64,000 nucleotides of DNA, from positions 321,950-385,949 of the forward strand of contig CAWFDT010000015.1 of NCBI GenBank assembly GCA_963814675.1. The letters are read 5' to 3'. The position numbers and the translations under genes are program-made. The DNA comes from an uncultured Pseudomonadota bacterium. Lineage in GTDB: Bacteria > Pseudomonadota > Gammaproteobacteria > Steroidobacterales > Steroidobacteraceae. Below are positions 14,303 to 57,163 of this stretch, one piece after another. How positions within the stretch are numbered: position 1 is the first letter of the stretch; each line of letters opens with the position of its first letter. The notes under the pieces are model-generated. The model ran no database searches and was not told the origin of the DNA. It saw only the letters and a list, made by a program, of their open reading frames with translations.

Positions 14303-15312
14303 TGGCTGCCCTCAAGCTCACCGTCGAGAAGGTGAACCTGGCGTTCTCCGCGCCCTTTCGCATCTCCGGGTTCGTGTTCGACAGTCAGGACGCCGTCGTG
14401 GTGAGCGTGGACGACGGCACGCATCGGGGTCGCGGCGAGGCCGCCGGTGTCTACTACCTCAATGACAATGCGGCGCACATCGTTACCACGCTCGAGTCCA
14501 GGCGCGCGGCGATCGAGGCCGGCATCGACCGCGAGAAGCTGCAGTCGCTGCTCCCGGCGGGTGGCGCGCGCAACGCGCTTGACTGCGCACTGTGGGAGCT
14601 GGATTCCCGGCGCACCGGCAAGGCGGTGTGGGAACTTGCAGGACTGGACCCACCCAAGCCGCTGCTCACCACCTTCACGCTCGGCGCCGAGAGCCCGGCC
14701 CACATGGCCGAGGGTGCGCGGCGCTACGCGAGCGCCCGGGCCCTGAAACTCAAGCTCACCGGGGAAGCGGCGCTGGACCTGGAGCGCGTGAGAGCGGTCC
14801 GGGCCGCGCGACCGGACGCGTGGATCGGCGTCGATGCTAACCAGGGCTACACCATCGAGGGGCTGAAGCCCCTGATCGCCGGGCTCGTGGAGGCGCGGGT
14901 CATGCAGCTCGAGCAGCCCCTCAAGCGTGGCGCTGAGGCGCAACTGCAGGGCTTTGCGTCGCCGATCCCACTGATCGCGGATGAGAGCGCGCTCACCCTC
15001 GCCGATGTACCTTCACTGGTGGGCCGCTTCAGCATGGTGAACATCAAGCTCGATAAGTGCGGCGGCCTCACCGAGGGCCTTGCCATGGCGCGCGAGGCCC
15101 GTCGTCTGGGATTGGGCGTGATGGTCGGCAACATGGTGGGCACCAGTCTTGCCATGGCACCCTCGTTCGTCCTCGGGCAGCTGTGCGATGTCGTCGACCT
15201 GGATGGGCCCACCTTCCTCAAGCACGACCCCGCGCCGACCATCACCTATTCCGACGGCATGATCTGGTGCGACGAACAGGTGTGGGGGAGGCGGAGCAGG
15301 CAGCCCGCGTGA
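14302..15312 (+). CDS. enolase-superfamily dipeptide epimerase / N-acetyl-D-Glu racemase-like (DgcA-like)
   Basis: Internal ATG at 14302 (MAALKLTVEKVNLAFSAPFRISG) overlaps the upstream TGA. KLKL, DANQGY, LEQP and DES metal/catalytic motifs are present. Confidence 0.8.
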   Translation: MAALKLTVEKVNLAFSAPFRISGFVFDSQDAVVVSVDDGTHRGRGEAAGVYYLNDNAAHIVTTLESRRAAIEAGIDREKLQSLLPAGGARNALDCALWELDSRRTGKAVWELAGLDPPKPLLTTFTLGAESPAHMAEGARRYASARALKLKLTGEAALDLERVRAVRAARPDAWIGVDANQGYTIEGLKPLIAGLVEARVMQLEQPLKRGAEAQLQGFASPIPLIADESALTLADVPSLVGRFSMVNIKLDKCGGLTEGLAMAREARRLGLGVMVGNMVGTSLAMAPSFVLGQLCDVVDLDGPTFLKHDPAPTITYSDGMIWCDEQVWGRRSRQPA

Positions 15313-20331: not shown

Positions 20332-20367
20332 CCGACCAATGAACAAGTTCGATCGTCGAATTTCCGT
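20332..20367 (+). repeat. fragment (core) of the H2 repeat unit seen at 51.6 and 56.0 kb
   Basis: CCGACCAATGAACAAGTTCGATCGTCGAATTTCCGT matches GCGACTAACGAACAAGTTGGATCGTCGAATTTCCGT (51675-51710) and the 56.0 kb copy. Confidence 0.7.
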
Positions 20368-29599: not shown

Positions 29600-29675
29600 G
29601 ACTTTGGCCGAGATTCGCAACTTCAAAACGCCCTGGATGGATGCTCCAGGGTGGGGACGATTGAATAAAGCGCTA
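29600..29675 (+). repeat. fragment of the H1 repeat unit (3' module)
   Basis: CAACTTCAAAACGCCCTGGATGGATGC (29618-29644) recurs at 51535-51563 (+) and 55650-55680 (-). The following GGACGATTGAATAAAGCGCT matches the H1/H2 junction. Confidence 0.7.
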
Positions 29676-29691: not shown

Positions 29692-30798
29692 TCACCCGAA
29701 TGTAAAGTCAAAGGCGGCGACGCCGGGCTCAAGAAACTGAATCTCGAACTCCCGATCTGTGATGGGTCCGCGTGATTGCCGAATGAGCTGATACATCCGC
29801 GGCTCGGTAACCGCGCCGCTGCCTTGGTCATCGGTATCGGAACCGTGCGCGGCACCGGGCGGCCGACCATCGATAAGGACACGAAAGTTCACCGACCCTC
29901 CACCGGCCGGGGGACTCAGAATCAAATTTACGTCACGGGCGTTAAAGCGGTACACAAGCCGCCCGCCGTCTGCGTTCAGGACCGCGGAATCAATGGTCAC
30001 GGTCCAATCGCCCGTAAGCGCCCACTCGTTGAGTTCAAGCTTCGCGGGTAACTCGTAGACGTGACGCTTTCCCAACAACGCCCCGCCGCTGGAGGCGAAG
30101 GTATCGCTGCGTTTGTAACCCAGGTAGGTTTCGGGGGACTTCAGAGTCGTCCAGTCCGCGGCAGCTTCTACCCCAGCGGGTATCACCGATACCAGAGCCT
30201 GACCGGCGCCCCTGTGTCCAGCCTCCGCCAATAACCGTTGAATGACCTCCTCCGACTGCGCGTAGTCGCCCTCCCCAAATTGGTGGTGCCGAATCCGACC
30301 CCGGGCATCAACGAAATACAGTGCTGGCCAGTACTGGTTCTTGAAGGCGCCCCATATTGCGTACTCACTGTCGACTGCGACTGGGAAGGTAATGCCGATC
30401 TCCTTGACCGCGCGCTGCACGTTATGGATGTTTTTCTCGAATTCAAACTCGGGTGTATGCACGCCGATGACCACGAGTCCTTGATCCCGGTACTTCTCCG
30501 CCCACGCACGAACGTAGGGGAGGGTGCGTCGCCAGTTGATACACGTGTAGGTCCAGAACTCCACGACCACGACTTTGCTGCGCAGCTGAGCCAAAGTCAG
30601 TGGTGGCGTGTTGATCCACTCCATTGCGCCTTCGAGGGAAGGTGCTGAGCCTTCGATCGGCAACGGGCCTGCTGAGAATGTCAAGGTATGCTCCTCGCTC
30701 TTGCGCTCAGCCGGGACAGCCCCGCACCAGAGTCCAATCACGCAGACCACTAGTGCGAGAGGCAGGCGGCGAACTGGTTGCACGACGGGCCTTCTCAT
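29692..30798 (-). CDS. thioredoxin-fold redoxin, DipZ C-terminal-domain-like, secreted
   Basis: VVVVEFWTYTCINWRRTLPYVRAWAEKYRDQGLVVIGVHTPEFEFEK...YWPALYFVD. ATG at 30798 gives MRRPVVQPVRRLPLALVVCVIGLW. The upstream 91 codons look non-coding. Confidence 0.75.
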   Translation of the reverse strand: MRRPVVQPVRRLPLALVVCVIGLWCGAVPAERKSEEHTLTFSAGPLPIEGSAPSLEGAMEWINTPPLTLAQLRSKVVVVEFWTYTCINWRRTLPYVRAWAEKYRDQGLVVIGVHTPEFEFEKNIHNVQRAVKEIGITFPVAVDSEYAIWGAFKNQYWPALYFVDARGRIRHHQFGEGDYAQSEEVIQRLLAEAGHRGAGQALVSVIPAGVEAAADWTTLKSPETYLGYKRSDTFASSGGALLGKRHVYELPAKLELNEWALTGDWTVTIDSAVLNADGGRLVYRFNARDVNLILSPPAGGGSVNFRVLIDGRPPGAAHGSDTDDQGSGAVTEPRMYQLIRQSRGPITDREFEIQFLEPGVAAFDFTFG

Positions 30799-37301: not shown

Positions 37302-38420
37302 TCAGGGATAGATATGCACCATGTTCGACGACGTGGCGCCGAAACGGACACGTTTCCAACGGCCCGACGAGTGCTCTTGCACCTCGACTCGCAGGTGGCG
37401 CACGCCGCTTTCGCTCAGTAAGTCGGGGTCAGTCGACATTTCCCGCTCGGCAAGTGGCTCGGCGCCTCGGGAGACGCGGCGCGGTGCGTCACTCAAGGGC
37501 TTTGATTGTGTCGACGATCCTGGCGTGCCGTTGGAATCGATCCCCCGATCGACTCCTTGCTCCACGAGATACGGGATTGCAGAGGTGCCGATACCGGCTT
37601 CGCGTGCACGCGTGACCTCCTGCTCGACAACGGGCACCACAGCCGCGGAGGCGAAGGTCGAGCGCACTTGGACAGCGACTTGCTTCGCAGAGCTCGGATC
37701 TGCGAAGAACCCCAGCCGCAGAAAATTGCGGGAACGCCCCTTGCGGCGACTTTCTGTCGCGTAGAGCGTATATGCCTTGAATATAGCGAGCGACGGCACG
37801 CGGTTGAGCTCGATCGGCTGCGCCGACCAGTGGAGCTGCACGGCAAAGGAAACCGGTGCACCCTGAACGACAGCCTCCTTCAAAGCCTGCCGAGTAGTTG
37901 TGTCGTCGGGGCGGAGCAACGCGATCTGATCGCAATTCCTCTCCTCCACGTCGTCCTGAACTGCGGAAACACGGCGCGCTTCCAGAATCTTTAGGACCTG
38001 TGTGTCGGTCAACGATTCATCTTTGACCGGTGCAGGGTCGCTGCTTTGGGGAACTACCGCCTGAGAAGCAGCGGGCGGCAGCGAAAGCGCCTCGGAATTT
38101 TCCGGCCGCAAAAACGCGACCGGTGCGATGGTTGCGAACGCGTTGGGATAATGGCGACGTACGGCCTCTACCCATCTCTCGGCATCCGCCAGCGTCTCGA
38201 AGTACCCCATGTGGAGGTACAACCGCTCACTGCCATCCGGCTGACGCGCACGACTCATGAAGAATGTGAAAGGCTTTAGCCGCGGTGATTGGGGCGGTCG
38301 AATGGACACCGGTGCAGCCAGCGGGCACAGCGTGAGCATGAAATGGCCAGTACCAACCTGCGCCCGATGCACTGGATTGGGGTTCGATGACCCAGTGGGC
38401 CTTGCCGATGTTGGTGTCAT
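37302..38420 (-). CDS. hypothetical protein with two SPOR-like repeats
   Basis: GGGAGAG precedes ATG 38420. Two segments (HFMLTL...LYLHMGYFETLADAERW and FAVQLHWS...FLRLGFFADPSSAKQV) fit the SPOR beta-alpha-beta pattern. Confidence 0.5.
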   Translation of the reverse strand: MTPTSARPTGSSNPNPVHRAQVGTGHFMLTLCPLAAPVSIRPPQSPRLKPFTFFMSRARQPDGSERLYLHMGYFETLADAERWVEAVRRHYPNAFATIAPVAFLRPENSEALSLPPAASQAVVPQSSDPAPVKDESLTDTQVLKILEARRVSAVQDDVEERNCDQIALLRPDDTTTRQALKEAVVQGAPVSFAVQLHWSAQPIELNRVPSLAIFKAYTLYATESRRKGRSRNFLRLGFFADPSSAKQVAVQVRSTFASAAVVPVVEQEVTRAREAGIGTSAIPYLVEQGVDRGIDSNGTPGSSTQSKPLSDAPRRVSRGAEPLAEREMSTDPDLLSESGVRHLRVEVQEHSSGRWKRVRFGATSSNMVHIYP

Positions 38421-38855
38421 AAGCTCTCCCTGAAACGAACGTTCGAGTCACGGTCGGGAGAGCGTCAGATCTAAGGCAGGCGAGCTTGCACGCTCACACC
38501 CGGGAGTGGAGTGGCAACCCCGCTGTCTTAGGCTGTCACGCCCGTAGACCGGTAGCTTTGCGTCCCCGCCTTTCGAACGGGTTTGCCCTTTTCGGTGCCT
38601 AGCTCGGTCTCAGGACGTGTCCGACTCGAGTCTAGTCAAGACTCGCAGAATGGATCGCATCTCAAGATCGGCTGTCATAAGGATGGCCGCTTGAGGACGA
38701 TATGTCTAGTGGTATGGCACCTCAGGTAGTGCCCCGGAGCTCCTGAACCGAGTCCGCGCTCCGCTCCCGAGTCTGAGCGAACGCCGTTTGCACCTACCGG
38801 GGGCGACCAGCCACGGGGCGGCTCGATCCGGACGCTGCCGCTGGTGCCGTGTGGG

Positions 38856-39160
38856 ATGACCGGTTGCGACCAGGCTGACCGCACGACGACCATTCGCGAG
38901 CCGTGGAACAAAGGAAAGCTCGTGGGTTAGAAGGCAGGCTCGAAGCTGGTGCCGTTTGAAATCACCGAGCGGACCCGTGAAGCGGTCGGTGCCTGGATTG
39001 GGCACGCCGGGATGATCCCAGAGGACCCAGTGTCAGACCGCGACCCTCATTCGCATTACATAACACTGGCTCACGACCCCGGCGCGCACCGCTGAGCACG
39101 ACTGCGGCAAGCCAAGGGCTACGTTGTGGGTCACCCTACGTCCCCAAGAGAATATTGCTT
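38856..39160 (+). pseudogene. relic of a tyrosine recombinase (phage-type integrase)
   Basis: MTGCDQADRTTTIREPWNKGKLVG, TAG at 38928-38930, then KAGSKL VPFEITERTREAVGAWIGHAG. A large internal deletion follows, with further frame-shifted GH-box-like remnants (VVGHPT). Confidence 0.55.
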
Positions 39161-39189
39161 GACAACCATGTATTATCGTATAACGATAA
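39159..39189 (+). promoter_or_regulatory. -35-like TTGACA plus perfect palindrome upstream of the DUF2975/HTH pair
   Basis: TTGACA at 39159-39164. TTATCGT-ata-ACGATAA at 39173-39189. ATG of the next gene at 39196. Confidence 0.35.
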
Positions 39190-39195
39190 CTATAC

Positions 39196-39765
39196 ATGAA
39201 AAGAAGATCAGATCGCTCCGCATCACCCGGCCGCATTCCGCCGGTCAATTCACGTCTGTGTCGTCGCGTAGGCACCGCCGCGGCGCTCAGCGGTATCGCG
39301 CTTGTCAGCATCAACGCGACGATGTGGCTGGTGCCCGAGATGGCCCCCTACGCCGCGCGCGGTGGCGCGAATTTGCAGGACGACCCAATCACTCTCACGC
39401 CGGTGATCCGCGCGATCGGTCTGGCAGGCTCGACACTGCATCTCGTGATTCTTGCCTGGGGGCTGTTCGTCGCGCGCGCGCTGCTGAGACGCCTGGCCGA
39501 CGGGCTGGTGTTTGAGCCCGAGACTGGCCAGCTGCTGCGTCGCTTCGGCATGTCCCTCGTCGTGTACGCGGCACTCCAGCCGCCAGTTGCCACGGGCATG
39601 GCGTGGCTGGTTACGAAGCTCAATCCGCCGGGCGAGCGGCTTCTTCGATTCGGACTCACGGACCACGAGATCGTTCTCGCGATCGTCGGCGTGCTCATCC
39701 TCACAACCGGTTCCGTACTGGCTGAGGCGACACGAATAGCGGAAGAGAATCGGCAGATCGTCTAA
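39196..39765 (+). CDS. DUF2975-like membrane protein
   Basis: 189 aa and 4 hydrophobic segments. It lies immediately upstream of a YozG-type HTH gene, which is the classical DUF2975 pairing. Confidence 0.65.
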   Translation: MKRRSDRSASPGRIPPVNSRLCRRVGTAAALSGIALVSINATMWLVPEMAPYAARGGANLQDDPITLTPVIRAIGLAGSTLHLVILAWGLFVARALLRRLADGLVFEPETGQLLRRFGMSLVVYAALQPPVATGMAWLVTKLNPPGERLLRFGLTDHEIVLAIVGVLILTTGSVLAEATRIAEENRQIV

Positions 39766-39767
39766 GC

Positions 39768-39983
39768 ATGCCGATCATCGTCACTCTCGACATCATGCTT
39801 GCCAAACGAAAGATGCGCTCGAAAGAGCTCGCCGAGAAGATCGGGATCACCGAAGTGAACGTGTCGCTGCTGAAAAGCGGACGCGTCAAAGGCGTGCGAT
39901 TCGAGACGCTGGCTAAGATCTGCGAGGTCCTGGATTGCCAGCCCGCCGATCTCCTTGAATACAGGAAGGACGCTGACTCATGA
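39768..39983 (+). CDS. small Cro/C1-type HTH transcriptional regulator (YozG-like)
   Basis: MPIIVTLDIMLAKRKMRSKELAEKIGITEVNVSLLKSGRVKGVRFETLAKICEVLDCQPADLLEY. Confidence 0.85.
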   Translation: MPIIVTLDIMLAKRKMRSKELAEKIGITEVNVSLLKSGRVKGVRFETLAKICEVLDCQPADLLEYRKDADS

Positions 39984-40103
39984 GCTGCGTCCGCTTCGTT
40001 CGCTTGACTCCCCCGTGAGCAGTTCTCGCGGGGACGGCTTACACGGTGGCAGCGAGATCAGAGTTCCACGGGCCCCCACATAACAAGAAACGAGATAGCA
40101 ATC

Positions 40104-40643
40104 ATGCCAGCAAGTCCGCCGCCGAGCCCGATGCCGGAATCGAAGCAGGTACTAGTGGAGCCGATATTCGAGGAGCAACTGATCGCTCTGCGCGCCGTCT
40201 TCTTCCGCCGCGTCCGCAGCCAGCCACAAGCCGCTGACCTCGCCCAGGAGGTCTACGTCCGCATGCTGCAGGTTAAGGACATAGGCGCAATTCGCGACCC
40301 ACACGCATACCTGTTTACAGTCGCACGCAATCTTGCCGACGAGCACGCATTCCAGCGCCGTGCACAGTTTGCGGTTGATGTCGAAGAGTCGAGTGTCCAA
40401 GCGGAACTGGCTGAGGTGCCAAACTTTGGTACGCAGATCGCCACCGCACGGCGCTCCAAGAAACTGCGGAACGTGTTGTGCAAGCTTCCGGCGAAGCAAC
40501 GGGCCGCGGTCGAGATGGCGTATTGGCACGGCCTGAGCTACGAGCAAATCGCGCAACGACTGAGCGTCTCGACCCATATGGTCAAGAAATACCTGAGTCA
40601 GGCGCTCGTGATCTGCCGGCTTCGCATGGCGCGATTGAGATGA
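40104..40643 (+). CDS. ECF (FecI-type) RNA polymerase sigma-70 factor, no adjacent anti-sigma gene
   Basis: Region 2 is ADLAQEVYVRML...YLFTVARNL. Region 4 is LPAKQRAAVEMAYWHGLSYEQIAQRLSVSTHMVKKYL. Confidence 0.85.
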   Translation: MPASPPPSPMPESKQVLVEPIFEEQLIALRAVFFRRVRSQPQAADLAQEVYVRMLQVKDIGAIRDPHAYLFTVARNLADEHAFQRRAQFAVDVEESSVQAELAEVPNFGTQIATARRSKKLRNVLCKLPAKQRAAVEMAYWHGLSYEQIAQRLSVSTHMVKKYLSQALVICRLRMARLR

Positions 40644-40801
40644 ACGGATGAACAGGGGCGAAGAAGCTGCGCGGTCCTGTTAGGTCAGCCGACTGGCATG
40701 AATCTGACTGGCAAATGAAGGCGGCTGCTTGAGAGTGGTTGACTGTCTGAAGAGTCCAACCTTTCGCGCGGGCGAATGGCAGGGCTCAGAACGTCTTGTC
40801 G

Positions 40802-41302
40802 ATGAACATCAAGATCAGAGGTGAGACTTCGGTTGACTTACCGGCGATCGAGGCCCTGACGACCGCCGCGTTCTTGAATGTGCCGCACACAAGCCACACC
40901 GAGCAGCGCATCGTCGACGCGTTGCGCACAGCCGGGAAACTCGCCATCTCGCTCGTCGCAGAATCGGATGGCAGCGCAATCGGCCACGTCGCGATATCCC
41001 CGGTATCCATATCAGACGGCGCGTCAGGTTGGTTCGGACTTGGCCCTATTTCGGTGATGCCGGAACAGCAACGTCGTGGCGTCGGCTCCCAGCTCATGCG
41101 CGAAGCTCTGCGCCTGCTTCGCGAGCGTGGCGCTTCTGGCTGTGTTGTGCTTGGCGAGCCAGCGTACTACGGCAGATTTGGCTTCAAAGCCGATCCCAAC
41201 CTCGTGCTGCGCGGCGTTCCGACAGAATACTTCCAAGCTATTGCATTCGGCTCTTCGCGGCCGAAGGGCATCGTTACCTACGATGAGGCGTTCAACGCAT
41301 AG
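40802..41302 (+). CDS. GNAT-family N-acetyltransferase
   Basis: 166 aa from ATG 40802, with the acetyl-CoA motif QRRGVGSQLMREAL. Confidence 0.85.
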   Translation: MNIKIRGETSVDLPAIEALTTAAFLNVPHTSHTEQRIVDALRTAGKLAISLVAESDGSAIGHVAISPVSISDGASGWFGLGPISVMPEQQRRGVGSQLMREALRLLRERGASGCVVLGEPAYYGRFGFKADPNLVLRGVPTEYFQAIAFGSSRPKGIVTYDEAFNA

Positions 41303-41705
41303 AGCTGACGTCGTAAATCAGAGTATCCCTAACGGAATGGGCAGAAGACCGCTTTGGGTCAACTCCGGAGGCGCCGGCCAAGCCGTCGGCAGCCAACCAA
41401 AAGCACTCATTCTAGAATGGCCCAGTTCGGTCAGGACCGGGAGTCTGGGCCACTTCGGAAGCAGGCGGCCAGAAGCGGGCGCCCGGCCGGTGCACTGCAG
41501 CTGCGCGCCATGAGGGCGCTGCGCTATCTTGCGCTCATGGCGCGCATCAAACGCATGTGTCCGGCCGCTAAAGCGCGACGTTAGAAGTCATGCCTGGCGT
41601 CAGCGTTGAGAGTCCAGAAGCGGTATTGTCTTCTCCTGGAAACGCCAGCTCGAGCTTGCTGCCGTTCATTTGTTACGCAGGTTCCAGAACATAAAGGAGT
41701 CGCTC

Positions 41706-42608
41706 TTGAACGGCTCAATCCGCAGAGCCTTTAGGACGTTATTTGTTCCGGCTATGCTGACTACATTGGCGGTCGCGCGCGATGAACCGCCGGGTACGTG
41801 CAAGGATTGTGCTGTATGGAATGAGACTCAAAAGCCGTTTCGGGTGTACGGCAACACCTACTACGTCGGCGTCCGCGGACTGAGCTCGATTCTCATCACG
41901 TCCGATCGAGGCCACGTCCTTATCGACGGCGACCTGGCGGAATCCGCGCCCAAGATCGCTGCGGGCGTCCTGGAGCTGGGATTCCGGATGGAGGACGTGA
42001 AGTTCATTCTTAATTCCCACGTGCACTTTGATCATGCCGGCGGCATCGCCGAGCTGCAGCGTCTGAGTGGGGCGAAAGTAGTGGCGAGCCAGTCCAGCGC
42101 AAAGGTACTGCAAGAGGGGCACTCTGGGGTGGATGACCCTCAGTTCGGCAGTATTCGCGGCATACCGCCCGTCGCGCACGTGAAAGTCGTGAAAGACGGC
42201 GAGACGCTGAGGGTGGGGCCGCTTCAGCTCACAGCTCACTTGACGCCCGGGCATACGCCCGGCGGCACAACCTGGACATGGAAATCGTGCGAGAGCGAAC
42301 GATGCCTCAACGTGGTGTACGCGGATAGCCTCACGCCGGTATCGGCGGATGACTTTCTATTCACGAGAAATTCCACCTACCCCAATGTACTTAAGGACTT
42401 CGAGAACAGTTTCAATAAGCTCGACATGCTGCCATGCGATATTCTCCTGACGCCGCATCCGGAGGTGTCAGATTTGTGGACAAGGCTCGAGAAGCACGAT
42501 CGCGGCGCTGGGGCCGACGCCTTCGTCGACCCGACGGCGTGCCGCCGTCTCGTGGCTGCGGCCCGGGAGCGGCTCCAGGCGCGCGTGGTGGCTGAGCGAA
42601 GGGGTTAG
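41706..42608 (+). CDS. subclass B3 metallo-beta-lactamase
   Basis: AAGGAG lies 6 nt upstream of TTG 41706. Signal peptide is present. HVHFDH (H116-x-H118-x-D120-H121), TPGHTPGG (H196) and TPHPE (H263) are all intact. Confidence 0.85.
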   Translation: MNGSIRRAFRTLFVPAMLTTLAVARDEPPGTCKDCAVWNETQKPFRVYGNTYYVGVRGLSSILITSDRGHVLIDGDLAESAPKIAAGVLELGFRMEDVKFILNSHVHFDHAGGIAELQRLSGAKVVASQSSAKVLQEGHSGVDDPQFGSIRGIPPVAHVKVVKDGETLRVGPLQLTAHLTPGHTPGGTTWTWKSCESERCLNVVYADSLTPVSADDFLFTRNSTYPNVLKDFENSFNKLDMLPCDILLTPHPEVSDLWTRLEKHDRGAGADAFVDPTACRRLVAAARERLQARVVAERRG

Positions 42609-44521: not shown

Positions 44522-45109
<588 letters not shown>

Positions 45110-45116
45110 TTATCAA

Positions 45117-46142
45117 TCACAGGGGTGACGCCTCGACGATGCTGAAGGCGCCGGCCGTGGGTAACACTCGGCTGAACTGGAATCGCGTCGAATCGAACAA
45201 CTTCGTGTATTCCTCCACTGTGCGCTGCCGCGCTTCGCCGAAGTACATCAACATGATCATGTCGATGAGGCCGACTCGCGCGTTCGGCTCACAGGGAATG
45301 GTCAGCATCTCGATCACGAGCAACCGGTCTGTCAGGCGCATGGCCTCGCGGCACCGTCGCAGGATCTCAAGGCACTTCGCGTCGGGCCAATCGTGTAGGA
45401 CTTGGCTCAACGTCCACACCTCGCCGGTGGCAGGGATAGTGTTGAAGAAATTCCGAGCCAGAAGTTGGCACCGATCTCGGACGCCCCGATCCTTCAATAC
45501 GCGATCGGCATCGGGGAGGAGTTCGGGCTGTTCGACGAGCATCCCATGGATTTTGGGGCGGCTTGCCATGATGGCCGCGAGCAAAGACCCTATTCCGCCA
45601 CCGACGTCTAAAACGGTATTCGTCCCGGTCCAATCGTAGGCGTCGGCGATCTGTTGGTGCTCGTCTCCGCGGAGCTCAGCGAGTGCGCGATTAAAAGTAT
45701 CGTTCTCTTCGGGATGCCGCCGTGCATAGTCCCAAAAGGATTCGCCGAATACATGCTGCGTCGCGGATTGGCCACTCGCAACGCTATGACCCAGGGCTGC
45801 CGCCGACCTAATGTAGTGCTCCGAGGTCTGGTAGAGCGCGAAGTTGCAGAGTCCACCGGGCTGATGGCGAAACAGCTTAGAGACCGAGTAATTGGCGAAC
45901 ACGCCGGGAGATACCTCATTAAACGCGCCAAGTGCCCCAAGTGCCCGAAGCGCGCGTGTGAGGGCGAGGACATTCATCCCGGACCGATGCGCAAGATCCG
46001 CAACGGAGAGCGGGCCAGGCTCAAGATGGTCTGCGACGTCATGGCGAACGAGAGCTCCAATGATGGGGTTGAAGTGCAGGTGATTCAGTAACGATATCGC
46101 AGCCTGGAAGTCCGCGAACGAAGTGGTTGCACTCTTTGCCAA
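45117..46142 (-). CDS. class I SAM-dependent O-methyltransferase (family 2, with dimerisation domain)
   Basis: 341 aa, TTG start. SAM motif VLDVGGGIGSLLAAI. The LSQVLHDWPD motif is typical of plant/bacterial OMT family 2. Confidence 0.85.
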   Translation of the reverse strand: MAKSATTSFADFQAAISLLNHLHFNPIIGALVRHDVADHLEPGPLSVADLAHRSGMNVLALTRALRALGALGAFNEVSPGVFANYSVSKLFRHQPGGLCNFALYQTSEHYIRSAAALGHSVASGQSATQHVFGESFWDYARRHPEENDTFNRALAELRGDEHQQIADAYDWTGTNTVLDVGGGIGSLLAAIMASRPKIHGMLVEQPELLPDADRVLKDRGVRDRCQLLARNFFNTIPATGEVWTLSQVLHDWPDAKCLEILRRCREAMRLTDRLLVIEMLTIPCEPNARVGLIDMIMLMYFGEARQRTVEEYTKLFDSTRFQFSRVLPTAGAFSIVEASPL

Positions 46143-46706
46143 ATGTCCTATCGAGGAGGCCGAAGCGATTATCGTGCTGCTCCGTCGTTCTGATCAATCG
46201 GATCGGTCACTGGCGACGGCCACGGAGAAACTGCAGATGCACCCTGCTAAAAGCGAGCCGCTCGGAAGAGGCCGGGCAACGCCCAGCTACGGTCTCTCGC
46301 TGGCTACGCATAAAAAAATGGCAACGGGGTCGTCCACTCCTGGGTCGCGGGTATAGCAGCCATTCGCCGCAGGCTCCCTCGGGTCAGCACCGGCAGTTCA
46401 ATCCGACAGGCCGGACACGGCCAGGACCCGCCGGTCGCTCTAATTAAATGCCTACCCAGAAGCGGTCGCTCACACTGCAACCAAGGGGGTAGCGGGGCAG
46501 GATTTGGGGCCTATTGGGCAGTGCGCTTGGGCTGATTTCAGGCGACCGTCACCCACAACCGCGCAGTTTTCCGAGATGTCGATGCGACCCAACACGAGCG
46601 GCGCTTGAAGTGATCGTGCAACACACCGCCGCATCATGCGCGCTAGGATTGGGAAGGCCGGTTTTTTTCAACTGGCACGGCACTTCACTGCGGCGGGGCG
46701 CAACAA

Positions 46707-51270: not shown

Positions 51271-51370
51271 GTTCAGACCACCCGATAACTGACTGTCGGG
51301 ATGATCGCCTTGGGGTTAATTGCGGGCGCTCGTCGAAGCCTGAGAGACACGATCAAAGGCATAACTCACT

Positions 51371-51827
51371 CGGCCGAGAACTTTCTGAGTCTATCGCTAG
51401 ACAACCAAGTGGCTCGAACGGAATGCCAGGCCGCTCAGGTCTCTTCTCAGCAGCTGTGGGCATCAAGTCCGGCCCCAGGGGATCCGATCAGACGATGAGG
51501 CTACCGGATTTCTCGTGGCCTTTACGTAGTCCCCTCGACTTGAAAACGCTCTGGATGGATGCGCTCGCAGGTCAAGGACGATGAGGAAAGCCCGCTAAAA
51601 CTAGATGATCCACTGAAACCACTGTGATCGGTCTGTCCATTGGTTGACCGGACCGACATTCCTCGAAAATATGGCGACTAACGAACAAGTTGGATCGTCG
51701 AATTTCCGTGGCCCCGATGATGGATTGGACCGAGAATTAGATATTGCATGATAGATCAATTGGTTGCGAGGTTCTGAAAAGCTCGTCGCCTTTACGTCGC
51801 CTCAACTTTTAAATTTCTGGGGCTCAT
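51371..51827 (+). repeat. full-length composite non-coding repeat (units H1 51371-51595 and H2 51580-51827)
   Basis: About 80 % identical to 55852-55620 (H1, inverted) and 55911-56154 (H2, direct). No frame is conserved between copies; indels are not multiples of 3. Confidence 0.85.
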
Positions 51828-52194
51828 GATTTGGCGTAAGCGCGACGGGGCCGTTCGGCTGGGTTGAAGAGACGGTTGGTATCCCTCGCACCTTGCGCTG
51901 CGTCGATATGCGTCACGACGCGTAGAGACGTCATTGGCCTTTCGATGGCGGTTGTTCCTTGTTTCCTAGGGGTGCCAGTTGCCAAGCCCGAAAGCATCCG
52001 CGACGATGCCGTACAAGTCGCGGGGGACACCCGAAATGGTCGACGGTGTCGGTGAGCGGAAGCGGGGCGTCGGTGCGCCTGATGTCGTTATCAGCCATGC
52101 ATCGCAGCGTGCCGCCGTTGCGAACACGGTATGGTTGTCGCCCCGGACGGGGGCCAGGCTCGCTTGGATCGGCGCAACACGATTCAGGCGTGAG

Positions 52195-52788
52195 TTGCAA
52201 CTCACGTTCCGAAAGGGCATCACATACCTCGTGCCACTTGTGATTGCCGCCGGCGCTACTGTGGCACTAGCGGCATCGAACGAACCTCTTGAGTATCTGG
52301 ACGAAGAAACGGGCGCGACTGTCACGGTCGTGGGTCGGCCGCTTGTCTTTGTCCATGACCGTTCAGGTTTCCTAGGTCACGCAGGGGACTACGTCACTCT
52401 CGCTGCCGCCGCCGTGAATCAAAGCGGGAAGATCACCTACGTACTTATCGGGTATTTCTGGTGGTCGGGTGTTCCTCCGAAAGCTGAGCTCGCACCGGCT
52501 GCTATCCAACCACTAGCCCTGCAGGCCGACGACCGGAACATACAGCTTGTTTTGCGCGCCGCGTCGGCCCGCGAGGCCGGCATCGGCGTGCCGGTGCATC
52601 GACCGCCGTTTGGCACTGCGACGCCCCATGCGTATGCCATCGACCTATCTACGATGGGGTTCATCGCCGAATCGCACCACCTCGCACTTCACATTCAGAG
52701 CGAGGACACGTCAGTGAACTACGCGCTCTTTGAGGATCGGCGTGCTGCGCTGCGGGAGTTCGTGCACCGCTTTAACGGCATTGACTGA
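52195..52788 (+). CDS. hypothetical secreted/membrane-anchored protein
   Basis: The C-terminal roughly 197 codons of ORF 51979-52788. A hydrophobic segment YLVPLVIAAGATVALAAS is present. The start (TTG 52195 or GTG 52231) is unresolved. Confidence 0.4.
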   Translation: MQLTFRKGITYLVPLVIAAGATVALAASNEPLEYLDEETGATVTVVGRPLVFVHDRSGFLGHAGDYVTLAAAAVNQSGKITYVLIGYFWWSGVPPKAELAPAAIQPLALQADDRNIQLVLRAASAREAGIGVPVHRPPFGTATPHAYAIDLSTMGFIAESHHLALHIQSEDTSVNYALFEDRRAALREFVHRFNGID

Positions 52789-52930
52789 GAGCGGCCAAAT
52801 CCGCTCGTACGATGAGGCAAAATGATAGCTCCAAAGCTGACGTTCGCGGGATCCTGCCCATAAGCGCAATGCCCTAAGCGCGCATAACCGTGAAAACCAA
52901 GAGTCAATCCCCTTCGTGCTGTTTGGCGGT

Positions 52931-53080
52931 ATGGCGCTCGCGCTGATGACAATCGCCGGCTGCGGCAATCGAGCGGCACCACCGGCTGGCACGGTGAAGC
53001 CGCCCATTCCCGTGGCGCAAGGGTTCCCGGAAAGGGTTGGAACGTTCTCTTACCCCTCTACGGCCCGCTTCAGGCGATAA
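52931..53080 (+). CDS. possible very small lipoprotein (49 aa)
   Basis: MALALMTIAGC has a lipobox-like IAGC. It is below the ORF-track length cutoff. Alternative GTG start at 52916. Confidence 0.3.
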   Translation: MALALMTIAGCGNRAAPPAGTVKPPIPVAQGFPERVGTFSYPSTARFRR

Positions 53081-53264
53081 GACATGGAAACCCGGTGAGT
53101 TCGAGCTGGTGAACTGAAACAGAAAACGGTCGCCTGCCTTAAAACCGCCATTTTGCAACCGGCAGCTATGGGTCAAGACAATGTAAAAACGCTGGTTCCG
53201 AGTGAGTCTCCGATGACGTCAGCGCCATTGGCGAGAGGGCGGCGGTTAGATAGGGGCGGGGGCG

Positions 53265-53411
53265 TTAAGCCCGGATTGCAGCCATCAGAGGGCGGATTTC
53301 GATGAGCTGCATCGCACGTTTCAGGTTGTAGCCAGAACCTGCAGGCTCATCTTGGTACTGACGCTGCCATCCGTTAGATGGCCTTACGACACTCCCTCGA
53401 CATTCCCCTGT
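53265..53411 (-). mobile_element. possible 3'-terminal relic of an IS4/IS5/IS1182-type DDE transposase gene
   Basis: The frame reads ...GWQRQYQDEPAGSGYNLKRAMQLIEIRPLMAAIRA*. The xYNLKRxxxL ending is typical of these transposases. Only about 48 codons are open. Confidence 0.3.
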
Positions 53412-53461
53412 TCAACGCCTTACCCCGCGAGTGTCTTTGGTCCCGTGACATACTCGGTCCT

Positions 53462-53800
53462 ATGCATTTCCGCATAGCGAGCATAGCCGTCGTTCTGAGT
53501 GTCACTGCGTGCGTGAAGCAAAGCCCAGATGAGCCTTTCAGCGGGACCGCCACCCTCACTTGGACTCCCGTGAGAACGGACGTTAACGGCAAGGCATTGC
53601 AAGACCTTGCTGGATACCGGATCCGTTACGGAACATCGGCAAAAGCCATGTACACGATCGTGTCAGTGAAAGATCCGAGGCAGACGACCTATGTCGTCAA
53701 GGATCTCTACCCTGGAAAGTGGTATTTCGCAGTCAGTGCGTACACCACCAGCGGTGCCGAAAGTGCTCTTTCCGGCGTTGCCTCAAAGACTGTCAAATAG
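53462..53800 (+). CDS. lipoprotein with a fibronectin type III-like domain
   Basis: MHFRIASIAVVLSVTAC carries a lipobox. TLTWTPVRTDVNGKALQDLAGYRIRYGTS...YFAVSAYTTSGAES is an FN3 pattern. Confidence 0.6.
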   Translation: MHFRIASIAVVLSVTACVKQSPDEPFSGTATLTWTPVRTDVNGKALQDLAGYRIRYGTSAKAMYTIVSVKDPRQTTYVVKDLYPGKWYFAVSAYTTSGAESALSGVASKTVK

Positions 53801-54074
53801 CTCTGCTAACCTAGGGCTCGCGGACCGATCGACAATACCGCCAAGCGGGCTGTCTGAGAAGCTACAGGCGGCGCGAAAGCGACGAAGTAAGCGTTATGTC
53901 CCCTTGCGGCCCAAAAGAGGACATGCGTGCGCGATCATCGTCATCTGTTCGACAACGAACAGACCGCGTGCATGGAAGCGAGCAAGCTGCATCGGTCAAG
54001 TTTCAACCACGAGTTGCTAAGGAGTTGGTCATCCAAAAGACGTACGGCCTCAATCGCCGTCGCTTTTGCGCTTG

Positions 54075-54278
54075 ATGTCCAGCATGAGAATCACATCCAT
54101 CGTTGCGCTTGTTCTCCTGTTGGCATCCTGTGCCAGTTCGGGTCTGTACAACATGTCGGACAACTGGTGCGCCGCGCACTTGAATGCAAGCGCGGCGCGG
54201 TGTCTCCCGGATCAGCAGCGCGTTGCTGACAAGGAGCGGGAGCGCGTCGCCAACAACGTGGCTCAACGGAACGAATAG
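54075..54278 (+). CDS. small lipoprotein of unknown function
   Basis: MSSMRITSIVALVLLLASC carries a lipobox. The mature part has two Cys. Alternative ATG start at 54084. Confidence 0.45.
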   Translation: MSSMRITSIVALVLLLASCASSGLYNMSDNWCAAHLNASAARCLPDQQRVADKERERVANNVAQRNE

Positions 54279-54658
54279 AGATTCCCGATAATCTACTGTT
54301 TTTGTGCAGAAACAGGCGTTCGTAGGCGCCAATGACTCTGCTTCGCTTCGCGAGCGCCTTTGTGCCGCTACAGTTGGCTACGCAAAGCACTACGTGGCCA
54401 ATCCGGCAGCAGTCGGCTAAAAGCGGAAGTCGGCTGGTTCAATCTCTCTGCCGTAAAGCGGTCACGGAGGAACTCACCCCCGATAACCTTCTCATTTGCG
54501 CGACATCTTCCTGTCGTACGGCCACTACGATCTTTCGACGACAAGCTGGTTTGCGGAAGACTTTGAGCGCGGGATTACGGTCTGCTAGGGCGCCTCGCTG
54601 CGCTTGCTAAGTTACACATGAGGCGAAAAGTGAGGCCGGCGCACCGGACTGCGGATCG

Positions 54659-55315
54659 CTACTTCGGGCGTCCCGCTCTTTCCCGCATGTAGTGCACGAG
54701 CTGCTCGAGTCTAGTGCTCACCTGTCGGGCGGTGAGCGACTTGGTCTCAATGCCGGCATAGTCAACGCGCTTCGGTATCGACGCAGCCCCGTCTAGCTGG
54801 CCTCTCGGCTCGCGAAGGGCGGCGGCATCCGCGCCAGCCCGAAGTCCGTGACCCGGGGCGGCTGATGCGGGGGCGCCAGACTGCACCGCTCTAGGGATCG
54901 TCCCCCCGTCTAGCTGCCGTCCCGGCGCGCGAACGGCGGCGGTATCCGCGCCAGCCCGAAGCCCATGCCCCAGGGCGGCCGATGCGGGGGCGCGAGACTG
55001 CACCGCTTTAGTGATCGTCCCCCCGTCCAGCTGGCCTCCCGGCGCGCGAACGGCGGCGGCATCCGCGCCAGCGCGAAGCTCGTGCCCCAGGGCGGCCGAT
55101 GCGGGGGCGCGAGACTGCACCGCTTTAGGGATCGTCCGTTCGAGCTGGTCAAGTCGCGGCCGAAGGTTGGCGATGTCCCTGCTGAGCTCATTCAGGCGGT
55201 CGGGCTGCCGGGGCGTGACGGATCGCCTAAATGCCGCGATAGATACGACCAGGCTGCCAGCCGATACAAGCAGGCTGCCACAAGAAATCCAGATCGTCAG
55301 GGCGGCGTCGCTCAT
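54659..55315 (-). CDS. single-pass membrane protein with three 39-aa tandem repeats
   Basis: GAGGAAG lies 5 nt upstream of ATG 55315. TM segment LTIWISCGSLLVSAGSLVVSIAAF, a coiled segment, then 3 x (TIxKAVQSRAPASAALGHxLRAGADxAAVRAPGxQLDGG). Confidence 0.55.
   Translation of the reverse strand: MSDAALTIWISCGSLLVSAGSLVVSIAAFRRSVTPRQPDRLNELSRDIANLRPRLDQLERTIPKAVQSRAPASAALGHELRAGADAAAVRAPGGQLDGGTITKAVQSRAPASAALGHGLRAGADTAAVRAPGRQLDGGTIPRAVQSGAPASAAPGHGLRAGADAAALREPRGQLDGAASIPKRVDYAGIETKSLTARQVSTRLEQLVHYMRERAGRPK
54787..55137. repeat. 3.0 copies of a 117-bp tandem repeat, in frame within CDS 54659-55315
   Basis: Units start at 54787, 54904 and 55021 (CCCCGTCTAGCTGG...). About 90 % identity between units. 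Confidence 0.9.
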
Positions 55316-55619
55316 TGAGCTTCCTCGCCGAAGATGCTCGCGTCCACGCGAGGCATATGGCACCAAACCAGGTCAGCTTAGCGTCCCGACCGCCGGGCTT
55401 CCTCCGTGTTAGCCGTTTGTGTGATAGCTGTCACGCGGGCAGCGAACTTGGCAGGTAGGCGTCTGGAGGTACTCCTCAGCCAGGACGCAGGTGTTCCGGT
55501 TGGTTACGGCCCAACCCCGAGTGCCTACCACAATTCGGCCACACTAATGCGGTCGCCATCCTTCCGCATCACGAGTTCCGCCAAGGCCCGCGATGCTTTC
55601 TCGACGCGGCGCCCTCCAT

Positions 55620-55852
55620 GGCGACCTTTCTTATCGCCGCATTGCCTGTGAGCACATCCATCCAGGGCGTTTTGAAGTTACCGAGGCTACGTAACGGCCG
55701 CGAGATATCCGGTGGCCCTCATCGTCTAATGGGATCCAATAGGGCCGGAATTGATGCCCACAGCCACTGGAAAGAGACGCGAACCCCCTGGCACGTTCAT
55801 CCGTTCGAGCCACTTGGCCAACGAACGATAGACTCAGAAACTTCCCGGCCGG
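55620..55852 (-). repeat. H1 repeat unit, inverted relative to 51371-51595
   Basis: The minus strand reads CCGGCCGGGAAGTTTCTGAGTCTATCG...GGCTGTGGGCATCAATTCCGGCCC...CTTCAAAACGCCCTGGATGGATG...GATAAGAAAGGTCGCC, aligning end to end with copy A. Confidence 0.85.
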
Positions 55853-55910
55853 ATGCACACATGGCCATCGCTCGCTGAGCAGGAACGGAAGATGATTTCG
55901 GAGCGGCAGG

Positions 55911-56154
55911 GATGATAAAGAAAGCGCGCGAAAACTAGATGATCCACTGAGAGTCACCGTGATCAGGTCGGTCCAGTGGACCGACAATCCTCGAAAATAT
56001 GGCTGCTAATGAACAAGTTAGATCGTCGCGTTTCCCTTGCCTCGATGATGGATTGGACCGATAACCAAATTTAGTTTACTAGATCAATTGGTTACGACGT
56101 TCTAAAGGGCTCGTCGCCTTTAGTCGCCTCAGCTTTGGGATTCTGGGCGCTCAT
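55911..56154 (+). repeat. H2 repeat unit, direct relative to 51580-51827
   Basis: GATGATAAAGAAAGCGCGCGAAAACTAGATGATCCACTGA...CGATGATGGATTGGACCGA...CTAGATCAATTGGTT...GCTCGTCGCCTTTAGTCGCCTCA...GCGCTCAT. Confidence 0.85.
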
Positions 56155-56455
56155 GGGTAGCGGAACGGCACGAGCGACTTGCAGGCAATATCAATTTTCA
56201 GGGCAACCTGCTGAACGTGCTCCTCGCCCGGGAGCACACATAGGACGCGCCGCGAACCAATACGTTAACGATTCCTCCGAATCTACCGGGACCGGCAGTC
56301 ACCGCATCGACCTCAATCGACAATCTGCGGGCGTGGCGAGCGCGCTCGGTACATAGTCCGAACTTCGAACCGGCTGGTTCAGCACGGGATGGGACGTGAT
56401 ATTCGGCTGGCTGCCCCGGTCTATAGGCCATAGCTATTGCTGCGCAGGGTTTCCG

Positions 56456-57163
56456 ATGACACGCCCATTGCGACGATGCCTGGCCGCAGCGACGATGCTG
56501 TGCTGCGTTGGGGCTGCGGATGCCCAACCGCGTCCGGTGGTGATCGAGCTGTTTACCTCACAGGGCTGCAGCTCGTGTCCGCCTGCTGAGGCCTATGTCG
56601 GAAGACTGAGCGCGCGGTCAGATGTCCTGGCGTTATCGTTTCACGTGAACTACTGGAATGAGCTCGGCTGGCCTGATCGGTTTGCCTTGGCTCAGTCGGT
56701 TGAACGACAGAACGTTTACGCTATAAACCTCGGCCGATCTTCCGTCTACACACCGCAGCTTGTCGTGGACGGACGCGCCGATCAGGTCGGCTCGGACGGA
56801 CAGGCGATTGCGAGAGCCCTGAGCGAGAATCGCGATGGCGTATCGGTCAAAGTCTCGGTGCGCGAGGCCGAGGTGCTGGTGGAAATCAGTGCGCGTGCGG
56901 ATGCTAAACCGGGCGATGTGGTCCTCATTCCATACCTGCGCCATGCGGTTTCGGCGATCGGCCGCGGAGAAAACGCTGGCCGCACCCTTGAGGAGTTCAA
57001 CATCGTGCGCGCTATCCGCACTCTGGGACCATGGAAGGGTGAGGCGCAGAGCTTTCACGTACCTGTGTCCTCGCTGCCGCCGGATGCCACCGATGTGGCG
57101 GTTCTTGTTCAGGCGTCCGGACAAGCCTCGATCATGGGAGCGGCCGCTCACGCCCTGCGCTGA
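56456..57163 (+). CDS. DUF1223 domain protein (secreted thioredoxin-like)
   Basis: MTRPLRRCLAAATMLCCVGAADA is the signal peptide. VVIELFTSQGCSSCPPAE...LSFHVNYWNELGWPD. Confidence 0.85.
   Translation: MTRPLRRCLAAATMLCCVGAADAQPRPVVIELFTSQGCSSCPPAEAYVGRLSARSDVLALSFHVNYWNELGWPDRFALAQSVERQNVYAINLGRSSVYTPQLVVDGRADQVGSDGQAIARALSENRDGVSVKVSVREAEVLVEISARADAKPGDVVLIPYLRHAVSAIGRGENAGRTLEEFNIVRAIRTLGPWKGEAQSFHVPVSSLPPDATDVAVLVQASGQASIMGAAAHALR

Follow-up and report, generated by a model that had tools for sequence, protein, structure and literature searches.

The centre of H2, one of two modules of a repeat in a 64-kb stretch of DNA (the window) from an uncultured soil gammaproteobacterium, encodes the start of tRNA-dihydrouridine synthase A (DusA), reading ..RRISVAPMMDWT. 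The dusA-like stretch ends exactly at the crossover of DusA-specific integrases and is followed by non-dusA DNA. The core of H2 is a dusA junction, and we consider it probable that H2 is a fossil attachment-site junction of a dusA-targeting prophage or genomic island, dispersed in a rearrangement-prone region. Table 1 lists the features of the repeat and its surroundings.

Table 1. Features of the H1-H2 repeat and adjacent DNA (positions in the window)
Feature	Position	Strand	Remarks
Isolated unit fragment, unit positions 362-396	20333-20367	+	91% over 35 nt
Isolated unit fragment, unit positions 223-279	29617-29671	+	84% to L007 over 58 nt
Full H1-H2 unit	51314-51847	+	535 bp, GC 0.52
H1 module, as first defined	51371-51575	+	Repeat confirmed
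22-nt motif CTCGTNGCCTTTACGTNGCCTC, H1 copy	51512-51533	+	Candidate integrase arm-type site
Possible second, degenerate core CCATTGGTTGACCGGACCGACAT	51637-51659	+	Weak match in window copies
dusA 5' decoy LDRRISVAPMMDWTE	51690-51734	+	Ends at DusA-integrase crossover
Core 26-mer within left decoy	51709-51734	+	Exact at 5/5 proviral integrase-dusA junctions
Non-dusA arm past crossover	51735-51812	+	TAGATCAA at 51752-51759, 22-nt motif at 51782-51803
Islet	51848-55619	.	Conserved 250-aa hypothetical protein, FN3 protein, small lipoprotein, tandem-repeat protein (Pfam, ORF lists)
Right-hand H1 copy, unit positions ~59-290	55620-55852	-	22-nt motif at 55683-55704
Segment inverted versus L022-L025	55648-55906	.	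Shared flank ends at 55647
Right-hand H2 copy, unit positions ~246-535, GC 0.49	55907-56168	+	
Right-hand dusA decoy	56018-56062	+	Core 56043-56061
LCAT-family 3'-terminal remnant, ~43 codons, in-frame stop	56154-56282	+	Abuts H2 right edge

Using residues 14-28 of Pseudomonas aeruginosa DusA in tblastn, we found 73% identity to the left decoy. DusA matched the H2 copies only at residues 13-28, and attP controls behaved alike. When a phage database was searched with H2, the matches were confined to the 30- to 35-nt core and lay next to integrases. In all three phage records that were inspected (one dusA junction and two phage attP sites), the match was located about 200 nt from a divergent tyrosine integrase gene. 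The attP sites read HRFCVAPLMDWTD followed by KRNSS and RRFSVAPMMDWT followed by VNSLE; H2 reads RRISVAPMMDWT followed by EN*. The exact 26-mer of the left decoy was present in five of five proviral contigs as the start of a real dusA, 165 to 245 nt from a homologous integrase. The fusion point in H2 is a known site-specific recombination point. The original prediction had named degraded ends of one ordinary duplicated gene as a competing explanation, and half of this applies: H2 does hold a degraded 5' end, that of dusA, fused to foreign DNA. For the possible second core, the counterpart in metagenome contig L007 matched the main core at 19 of 24 positions (score 28; shuffle maximum, 20) and reads SVGPMVDWTD.

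The repeat itself was largely as predicted. H1 recurs on the opposite strand and H2 (51573-51847) in direct orientation, each at about 80% identity. The H1 pair (51371-51571 and 55645-55851) aligned in three collinear blocks of 52, 77 and 73 nt at 81-85% identity, with 79% over 210 nt in blastn, and the alignment of H2 joined 51573-51828 to 55907-56155 at about 80%. Conserved 18- to 23-mers of H1 and H2 occurred exactly twice each in the window, while 0.00 to 0.09 matches were expected from dinucleotide shuffles. The units were also found to be non-coding and modular, with indels of 1, 5 and 7 nt between copies (not multiples of three) and stops in all frames. At the right-hand locus, H1 and H2 sit back to back between 54659-55366 on the minus strand and the DUF1223 gene at 56456-57163 on the plus strand, and the two (unit positions 59-285 and 246-535) share about 35 nt of unit sequence. 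The proposed size of 457 bp had to be revised, as the natural unit is longer (535 bp), with limits set by an 87%-identical copy in L007 and by the sister contigs. The L007 alignment (1875-1341) extended over 533 nt with unrelated flanks on both sides, and the copy in sister contigs L022-L025 was 86% identical. Copies and fragments of the unit are dispersed over 36 kb; the fragment at 20333-20367 reads MNKFDRRISV, the beginning of the dusA decoy. The unit had no match among 185,579 reference genomes, and only about ten related sequences were found in total. H1 showed no similarity to an integrase, protein, RNA or IS.

Elements specific for dusA, with a DusA-associated tyrosine integrase, enter the first codons of dusA and supply a replacement 5' end, leaving the displaced dusA 5' end stranded at the far junction of the element. 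In the circular form of the element, the replacement 5' end is instead joined to the far end of the element. H2 shows this anatomy, with about 18 dusA-like codons (MNKLDRRISVAPMMDWT), an interruption at the canonical crossover and some 80 nt of arm DNA of element type that closes with a conserved CCTTTACGTCNCCTC motif, present once more in H1. H1 and H2 together form the 535-bp unit, which has been copied, truncated and once inverted. The copies are presumably functionless scars by now, and the rearrangements described below may stem from earlier recombination at these sites, whether site-specific or illegitimate.

The DNA beyond the crossover appears to be element-derived. A 94-nt module, consisting of the core and the CCTTTACGTCNCCTC motif, is common to H2, L006 and L008; it is the only sequence that H2 shares with the other two, and also the only one that L006 and L008 share with each other. 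L006 and L008 are independent orphan junctions. The 22-nt motif forms an internal direct repeat of the unit (51512-51533 and 51782-51803) with a score of 30 (shuffle mean, 17.4; shuffle maximum, 28) and matches three places in the window (0.01 expected). The repeated motif is a putative integrase arm site.

The canonical context of such a junction is missing, because neither dusA nor an integrase is present in the 64 kb or on related contigs. Analyses by tblastn detected no dusA in the window or the related contigs, and the same was true of integrase when three DusA-type integrases were used as queries. Pfam searches of the ORFs around the repeats detected no integrase either, and H1 has stops in all frames. 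Both H2 copies represent one junction type, not an attL/attR pair.

We then compared the window with sister contigs that are 93-96% identical. The proposal of a coherent 4-kb islet bracketed by the repeat was not supported, since sister contigs carry the islet with different or missing repeats. L022-L025 contain the islet and the left unit, and on the right only two short H1 fragments and no H2; L026 contains the islet without the left unit; and L001-L004 contain the first islet gene and no repeat whatever. The islet is not a discrete element. Its lower GC content, also part of the original prediction, was a weak effect (0.604, or 0.582 when the tandem-repeat gene is excluded, versus 0.615 across the window), and the AT-rich portions are the repeat units themselves (GC 0.49 to 0.575). 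Pfam gave no support for a possible transposase relic and revealed no integration genes among the islet ORFs. An inverted version in sister strains, which the original prediction had suggested looking for, was found: the segment at 55648-55906 is inverted relative to the sister contigs, and a sister H1 fragment has the same 5-nt insertion as the right-hand copy of the window, in the opposite orientation.

Since four independent sister contigs agree mutually but not with the window on the right-hand side of the islet, and the material is metagenomic, the arrangement could be an assembly artefact, a chimeric strain join at the repeats. We consider this very improbable. At about 80% identity the repeat copies differ too much to confuse an assembler, the repeats were seen independently in L007, L022-L026 and L005, and the LCAT remnant, a decayed gene fragment, is joined on cleanly through microhomology. 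The intact LCAT gene of L016 matched this remnant at 67% identity in tblastn (E=6e-13), with nucleotide homology beginning at about 56160.

The unit has decayed, and its copies coincide with truncated genes and breaks in synteny. Compared with the sister contig, identity was 86% in the unit and 92-94% at third codon positions of neighbouring genes, and in the sister core the codon TGG is changed to CGG. What adjoins the unit at its right edge varies: an LCAT or a VIT1 gene, both truncated, a GH63 gene, or the 250-aa gene. Synteny with L012/L013 breaks off at 29696, 24 nt from the fragment at 29617-29671, unit fragments sit at further synteny breaks, and the chromosome region around the copies is reshuffled in 1- to 5-kb blocks among close relatives. 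The breakpoints were located 115-135 nt past the core, not at the core, and therefore were not made by the canonical crossover.

A different reading of these rearrangements, which we regard as unlikely, is that the unit is a still-active non-autonomous recombination substrate (a portable decoy att site or CIME-like cassette boundary) on which a DusA-type integrase, its gene elsewhere in the genome, acts in trans. Exchange between copies at different places would then account for the excision, inversion and block shuffling among sister genomes. In favour of this reading, the cores of both H2 copies of the window are identical over 19 nt, directly oriented and separated by 4328 bp, and the unit has the same outer edges in different contexts, breakpoints that repeat at few unit positions and a patchwork gene order around its copies. 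The inverted segment (259 bp) is flanked by imperfect inverted copies, about 28 nt long, of unit positions 262-290. However, the integrase was looked for and not found, the core is mutated in sister contigs, and sequence change in the unit outpaces that at third codon positions. At 80% identity, two identical runs of 19-20 nt come as no surprise (an estimated ~0.7 expected per 250 nt), most breakpoints are away from the core, and the two cores are of the same att type. The evidence favours decay over recombination-competent copies. It appears less probable still that a resident DusA-type integrase continues to use the 535-bp unit as a portable decoy att site and that site-specific recombination between dispersed copies and pseudo-sites drives the cassette-like reshuffling among sister genomes, including the 259-bp inversion and the capture of 3'-terminal gene fragments.

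Three copies have the same outer edges in differing genomic contexts, with no recognised transposition signature, and passive decay alone does not explain this. The defined edges with differing flanks could point to a MITE or other transposase-driven non-autonomous element, or to the terminus of a larger transposon or an IS91/ISCR-like rolling-circle element that causes adjacent deletions. The constant right edge beside truncated 3'-terminal gene fragments on the same strand does resemble one-ended transposition or adjacent deletion. We nevertheless hold this origin to be improbable. The original prediction had not recognised any IS end in the units, and alignment of two full copies with their flanks revealed neither terminal inverted repeats nor target duplications, and no transposase was found. 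The plasmid collection contained no match and the phage collection no IS-like match, and a genuine MITE in the sister contigs, with 18-bp terminal repeats, looks quite different.

Every module lies upstream of, and co-oriented with, a gene, and perfectly identical blocks occur inside copies that are 80% identical. H1 and H2 could thus be functional, as small RNAs or cis-regulatory leaders placed in sense ahead of the 250-aa, tandem-repeat and DUF1223 genes, but the chance of this appears slight. No Rfam family was matched at the gathering threshold or even at E up to 10, in agreement with the original prediction, folding energy was no better than that of shuffles (MFE z = -1.4 and -0.1), and the alignment folds had positive covariation terms, giving no covariation support, and many broken pairs; a structured RNA was rejected on these grounds. 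Promoter-like or terminator-like sites were not above background, and the modules are absent upstream of orthologues of the downstream genes. Moreover, the truncated LCAT gene separates H2 from DUF1223, and the divergence of the modules exceeds that of third codon positions.

Read as fossil dusA-element junctions, an unrecognised modular repeat becomes interpretable. A widespread class of prophages and islands is documented to leave dusA 5' ends stranded as a by-product; here such ends are found away from dusA and in multiple copies. The sequence ..VAPMMDWTD followed by non-dusA DNA provides an annotation signature for such decoys, which mark earlier integration and regions prone to rearrangement. 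Were the copies still able to recombine, they would represent prophage att sites restructuring a chromosome, and if a resident integrase used the units, the result would be a system that shuffles the chromosome by means of prophage att sites.

Compared with known systems, the unit resembles MITE, REP, BIME and ERIC sequences in being non-coding, repeated, intergenic and AT-richer than its surroundings. It differs from them in its length of 535 bp, in having no terminal inverted repeats, target duplication or palindromic units (self-comparison revealed only short internal repeats), and in containing a recognisable gene fragment. A REP/BIME/ERIC-type repeat was rejected because the unit is 535 bp long and non-palindromic.

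CIMEs (cis-mobilizable elements) and the tandem accretion of integrative elements have been defined previously (PMC5704250). Like a CIME, the islet has no integrase or transfer genes and is enclosed by two att-type sites in direct repeat, and there are signs of serial integration here as in tandem accretion, including the possible second degenerate core upstream. Unlike a CIME, the islet has no target gene at either end, its sites are not attL and attR, and sister genomes hold the islet segment with different or missing flanking sites.

The closest comparison is with dusA-specific islands and prophages (Farrugia et al. 2015, PMC4482086) and the Vibrio dusA elements (PMC8409611). The dusA elements supply the gene with a fresh 5' end, the former one persisting as a "remnant dusA 5' end", and their att repeats are semi-conserved and 21 bp long (PMC4482086). 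In the window, the two identical 19-nt cores enclose 4328 bp and belong to the same junction type; sister contigs lack the right-hand core. At a dusA-element junction, the integrase 5' end adjoins the dusA 5' end, and an intact dusA lies at the other junction; in contrast, the H2 copies are away from dusA with no integrase nearby in the window, and no intact dusA is present in the window or related contigs. Also unlike dusA-element junctions, H2 occurs as several copies and fragments over 36 kb within a 535-bp unit that includes the H1 half, its copies are of one junction type, and the breakpoints are outside the core. Yet, as at dusA-element junctions, the dusA 5' fragment of H2 stops at the APMMDWTD crossover region, fused to non-dusA DNA, and its coding end falls in the APM(M/L)DWTD region. 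The host is a gammaproteobacterium whose nearest named matches are Steroidobacteraceae, within the known host range of dusA elements, and the H2 core is identical to that of real integrase-dusA junctions.

Two modules, H1 and H2, had been predicted to bracket an islet as inverted and direct repeats, respectively, and both arrangements were found. H1 at 51371-51571 aligned with the opposite strand of 55645-55851 in three collinear blocks of 81-85% identity (79% over 210 nt by blastn), and H2 at 51573-51828 aligned with 55907-56155 in the same orientation at about 80% identity. The conserved 18- to 23-mers of each module occurred exactly twice in the 64-kb window, against an expectation of 0.00-0.09 from shuffles. 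The copies differed by non-triplet indels (1, 5 and 7 nt) and had stops in all frames, as the original prediction stated. We found that a metagenome contig, L007, carried a full copy 87% identical to that of the window, and that homology to it was lost on both sides of a natural unit of 535 bp. The right-hand H1 and H2 are two pieces of this unit that overlap by about 35 nt.

Coordinates of the repeat unit, its fragments and other features in the window
Feature	Coordinates	Unit positions	Remark
Natural unit	51314-51847		535 bp
H1, left	51371-51575
H2, left	51573-51847
Motif CTCGTNGCCTTTACGTNGCCTC, H1 copy	51512-51533
Core 26-mer	51709-51734		in H2
Motif TAGATCAA	51752-51759		in H2 arm
Motif CTCGTNGCCTTTACGTNGCCTC, H2 copy	51782-51803
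Islet	51848-55619
H1, right	55620-55852	59-285	inverted
H2, right	55907-56168	246-535	direct
Further unit fragment	29617-29671	223-279
Further unit fragment	20333-20367	362-396
LCAT-family lipase remnant	56154-56282 (+)		decayed last ~43 codons, in-frame stop
c-di-GMP-I riboswitch	38510-38597 (-)		RF01051, 78.8 bits, E=8e-14
372-aa ORF	37302-38420 (-)		no Pfam assignment in related contigs

Other features ascribed to the islet held up less well. It is only marginally AT-richer than the window (GC 0.604 versus 0.615), the AT-rich parts being the repeat units themselves (GC 0.49-0.575), and the supposed transposase relic had no Pfam support from any islet ORF. The 385-bp segment at 52797-53181 was also considered as another H1 copy; no resemblance between it and the repeat unit was detected, and its score of 25 (shuffle maximum, 30) was not significant.

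When H2 was compared with a phage database by blastn, eight of the nine weak matches fell on the same 30 to 35 nt (51703-51738). In the three records that were opened, the match and the start of a divergently transcribed tyrosine integrase (Pfam Phage_integrase) were about 200 nt apart. In one of them the matching stretch opened an annotated dusA; in the other two, phages Gervaise and Haddon, it was the phage attP. The reading frames at these two attP sites are HRFCVAPLMDWTD followed by KRNSS and RRFSVAPMMDWT followed by VNSLE, and that at a real dusA gene is RRFSVAPMMDWTDRHCRFF; the left H2 reads RRISVAPMMDWT followed by EN and a stop, and the right H2 reads ..MMDWTD followed by NQI and a stop. 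Pseudomonas aeruginosa DusA matched the H2 copies at residues 13-28 only, as it did with the two attP controls. Five IMG/VR proviral contigs contained the exact core 26-mer, each time as the start of a genuine dusA with a homologous integrase 165-245 nt away. Neither the window nor any related contig has a full dusA.

It has been reported that dusA-specific elements insert in the dusA 5' end and bring a new 5' end, that a "remnant dusA 5' end" stays at the far junction, and that there are 21-bp semi-conserved att repeats on the flanks (PMC4482086). The H2 pattern fits this biology. Together with the phage, DusA and proviral matches, it therefore identifies H2 as a dusA 5' end fused to non-dusA DNA at the canonical crossover, and because of this fusion H2 is an attL-type or attP-type junction.

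One metagenome scan returned, besides L007, the contigs L006 and L008, whose only common sequence with H2 and with each other is a 94-nt module running from ..CC(C/T)ATGATGGATTGGACCGAC through TAGATCAA to CCTTTACGTCTCCTCG. Upstream of the module, we read different dusA-like codons in the two contigs, RRIAVAPMMDWTD in L006 and, with a 1-nt frameshift, RKISVA-MMDWTD in L008; downstream of it, L006 carries toxin-antitoxin-type cargo. Conservation of the core and arm with divergence of the rest is expected of the junctions of related elements in different hosts. One copy of the 22-nt motif CTCGTNGCCTTTACGTNGCCTC lies in H1 and another, in the same orientation, in the H2 arm; we propose this motif as a candidate integrase arm-type site. 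In L007, the main core is preceded at 65 nt by a degenerate second one (SVGPMVDWTD). This hints at serial integrations, although the copies in the window are too decayed for confirmation. A series of three or four cores along the unit, with GACGATGAGG at unit positions 178 and 264, was rejected, the evidence being short exact repeats that were too weak (E 0.2-3).

Other classes were also investigated. That the unit is a regulatory RNA or leader appears very improbable: Rfam gave no family in the region at the gathering threshold or at E values up to 10, as had been predicted, the folding energies of H1 and H2 were ordinary (z = -1.4 and -0.1), and no sigma-70 promoter or terminator sites above background were found in the units. 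Alignment folds (three H1, three H2 and six copies of the 94-nt module) gave positive covariation terms with many broken pairs, and a conserved hairpin between TAGATCAA and the arm motif was not supported after alignment of the copies. A transposon terminus is decidedly unlikely; the unit ends have neither terminal inverted repeats nor a target duplication, in agreement with the original prediction, which did not recognize the modules as any insertion sequence end. There was no match in a plasmid collection (blastn), in reference genomes scanned with an H2 20-mer and with the core plus TAGATCAA, or in viral contigs scanned for the 94-nt module, the arm motif, H1 and a degenerate decoy. For H1, a relic of an integrase N terminus was considered (tblastn gave noise only), as was a real protein from its longest ORF (107 aa), which had no homologue among 5.8 billion proteins.

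Sister contigs carrying the islet (L022-L026), 93-96% identical to the window, were reached via cluster members of a 250-aa islet protein. L022-L025, which are four independent assemblies, have the order DUF4386, a 218-bp MITE next to the left edge of the unit, positions 1-471 of the unit, the islet, a short inverted fragment (unit positions 262-290), 44 nt, unit positions 75-109 in direct orientation, and an O-methyltransferase block that lies at 45063-46426 in the window. Their islet is without 51785-51931, 52797-53181 and 53849-54515, and the right-hand H2 is absent. An assembly artefact as the source of the arrangement in the window is scarcely plausible. The H1 fragment in these contigs carries a 5-nt insertion typical of the right-hand H1 of the window and points the other way; thus, compared with L022-L025, the window has 55648-55906 in inverted orientation, the kind of inverted version for which a sister comparison had been proposed. 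L026 has the islet without the left unit, followed by a permease, an interrupted unit and a GH63 gene, and an additional fragment of unit positions 204-289 inside the islet. In L001-L004, the 250-aa gene is present with no repeat at all. Since the repeats differ or are missing in these contigs, the islet is not a discrete element defined by them, contrary to the original prediction.

Several further features of these contigs and of the window were observed. The MITE (L023 9220-9439, L024 3387-3606), whose 18-bp terminal inverted repeats are perfect (ATTCTGTTGAAAAACTC core), is inserted in the sister contigs precisely where the unit begins on the left; the window lacks it, and the sequences of L022 and L025 begin within it. 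In L026, a 466-nt foreign stretch (14717-15182) replaces unit positions 110-350 and includes a called 85-aa gene (14724-14981), taken as a putative 3'-terminal gene fragment. The segments 52797-53181 and 53849-54515, the latter holding a small lipoprotein ORF (54066-54278), are missing or replaced in L005 as well as L022-L025. ORF 54659-55366(-) contains three in-frame 117-nt tandem repeats (54787-55137; 88-90% identical, GC ~0.68-0.71), to which L023-L026 align in several registers, suggesting that copy number varies. Across 27-57 kb, the window is 86-96% identical to L004, L012/L013, L016 and L022-L026, with the same genes in a different order, as a patchwork of 1- to 5-kb blocks; 38862-42494 is in L026 and not in L023. 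In the window, the 372-aa ORF has the c-di-GMP-I riboswitch immediately upstream.

The unit of L023 is 86% identical to that of the window, compared with 92-94% for the third codon positions of four neighboring genes and 87-94% for other intergenic DNA, and a core codon changes from TGG to CGG in L023. This divergence and the core change argue against the unit being under purifying selection. Its faster change than that of third codon positions may be due to gene conversion between copies or to non-orthologous replacement. Four different neighbors were seen at the right edge of the unit: the 250-aa gene, the LCAT remnant, half of a VIT1-family gene and, in L026, GH63. An intact LCAT-family gene precedes DUF1223 in L016 and in the contig of P0121. 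Of the VIT1-family gene of L007 (982-1326, minus strand), only the C-terminal half remains (Pfam positions 108-214 of 214), beginning 15 nt past the right edge of the unit. In L005, sequence like that at 44.3 kb is joined to unit position 371 via microhomology, and the unit fragment at 29.6 kb and a synteny break with L012/L013 are 24 nt apart. Unit positions ~109, 260-290, 350-371, 472 and 535 are recurrent breakpoints.

We consider it reasonably probable that the units are fossil att junctions of dusA-targeting elements, which would have been scattered and fragmented as this chromosomal region was reshuffled in small blocks. This reading does not account for H1, the arrival of a constant-edged unit in different contexts, and the three abutting same-strand 3'-terminal gene fragments. 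The main rival, in which an integrase encoded elsewhere still uses the copies as substrates, appears unlikely to us.

The unit is usefully instructive for annotation and marks genome plasticity; it represents no new kind of system. The unit resembles the junction of a dusA-specific element in its core and arm, but it lacks the context features of that family, namely an integrase, dusA and an attL/attR pair. Because of this, it was not filed as a canonical junction or as a CIME (definition from PMC5704250); we file it as a dispersed, decayed variant of the dusA-specific element junction.
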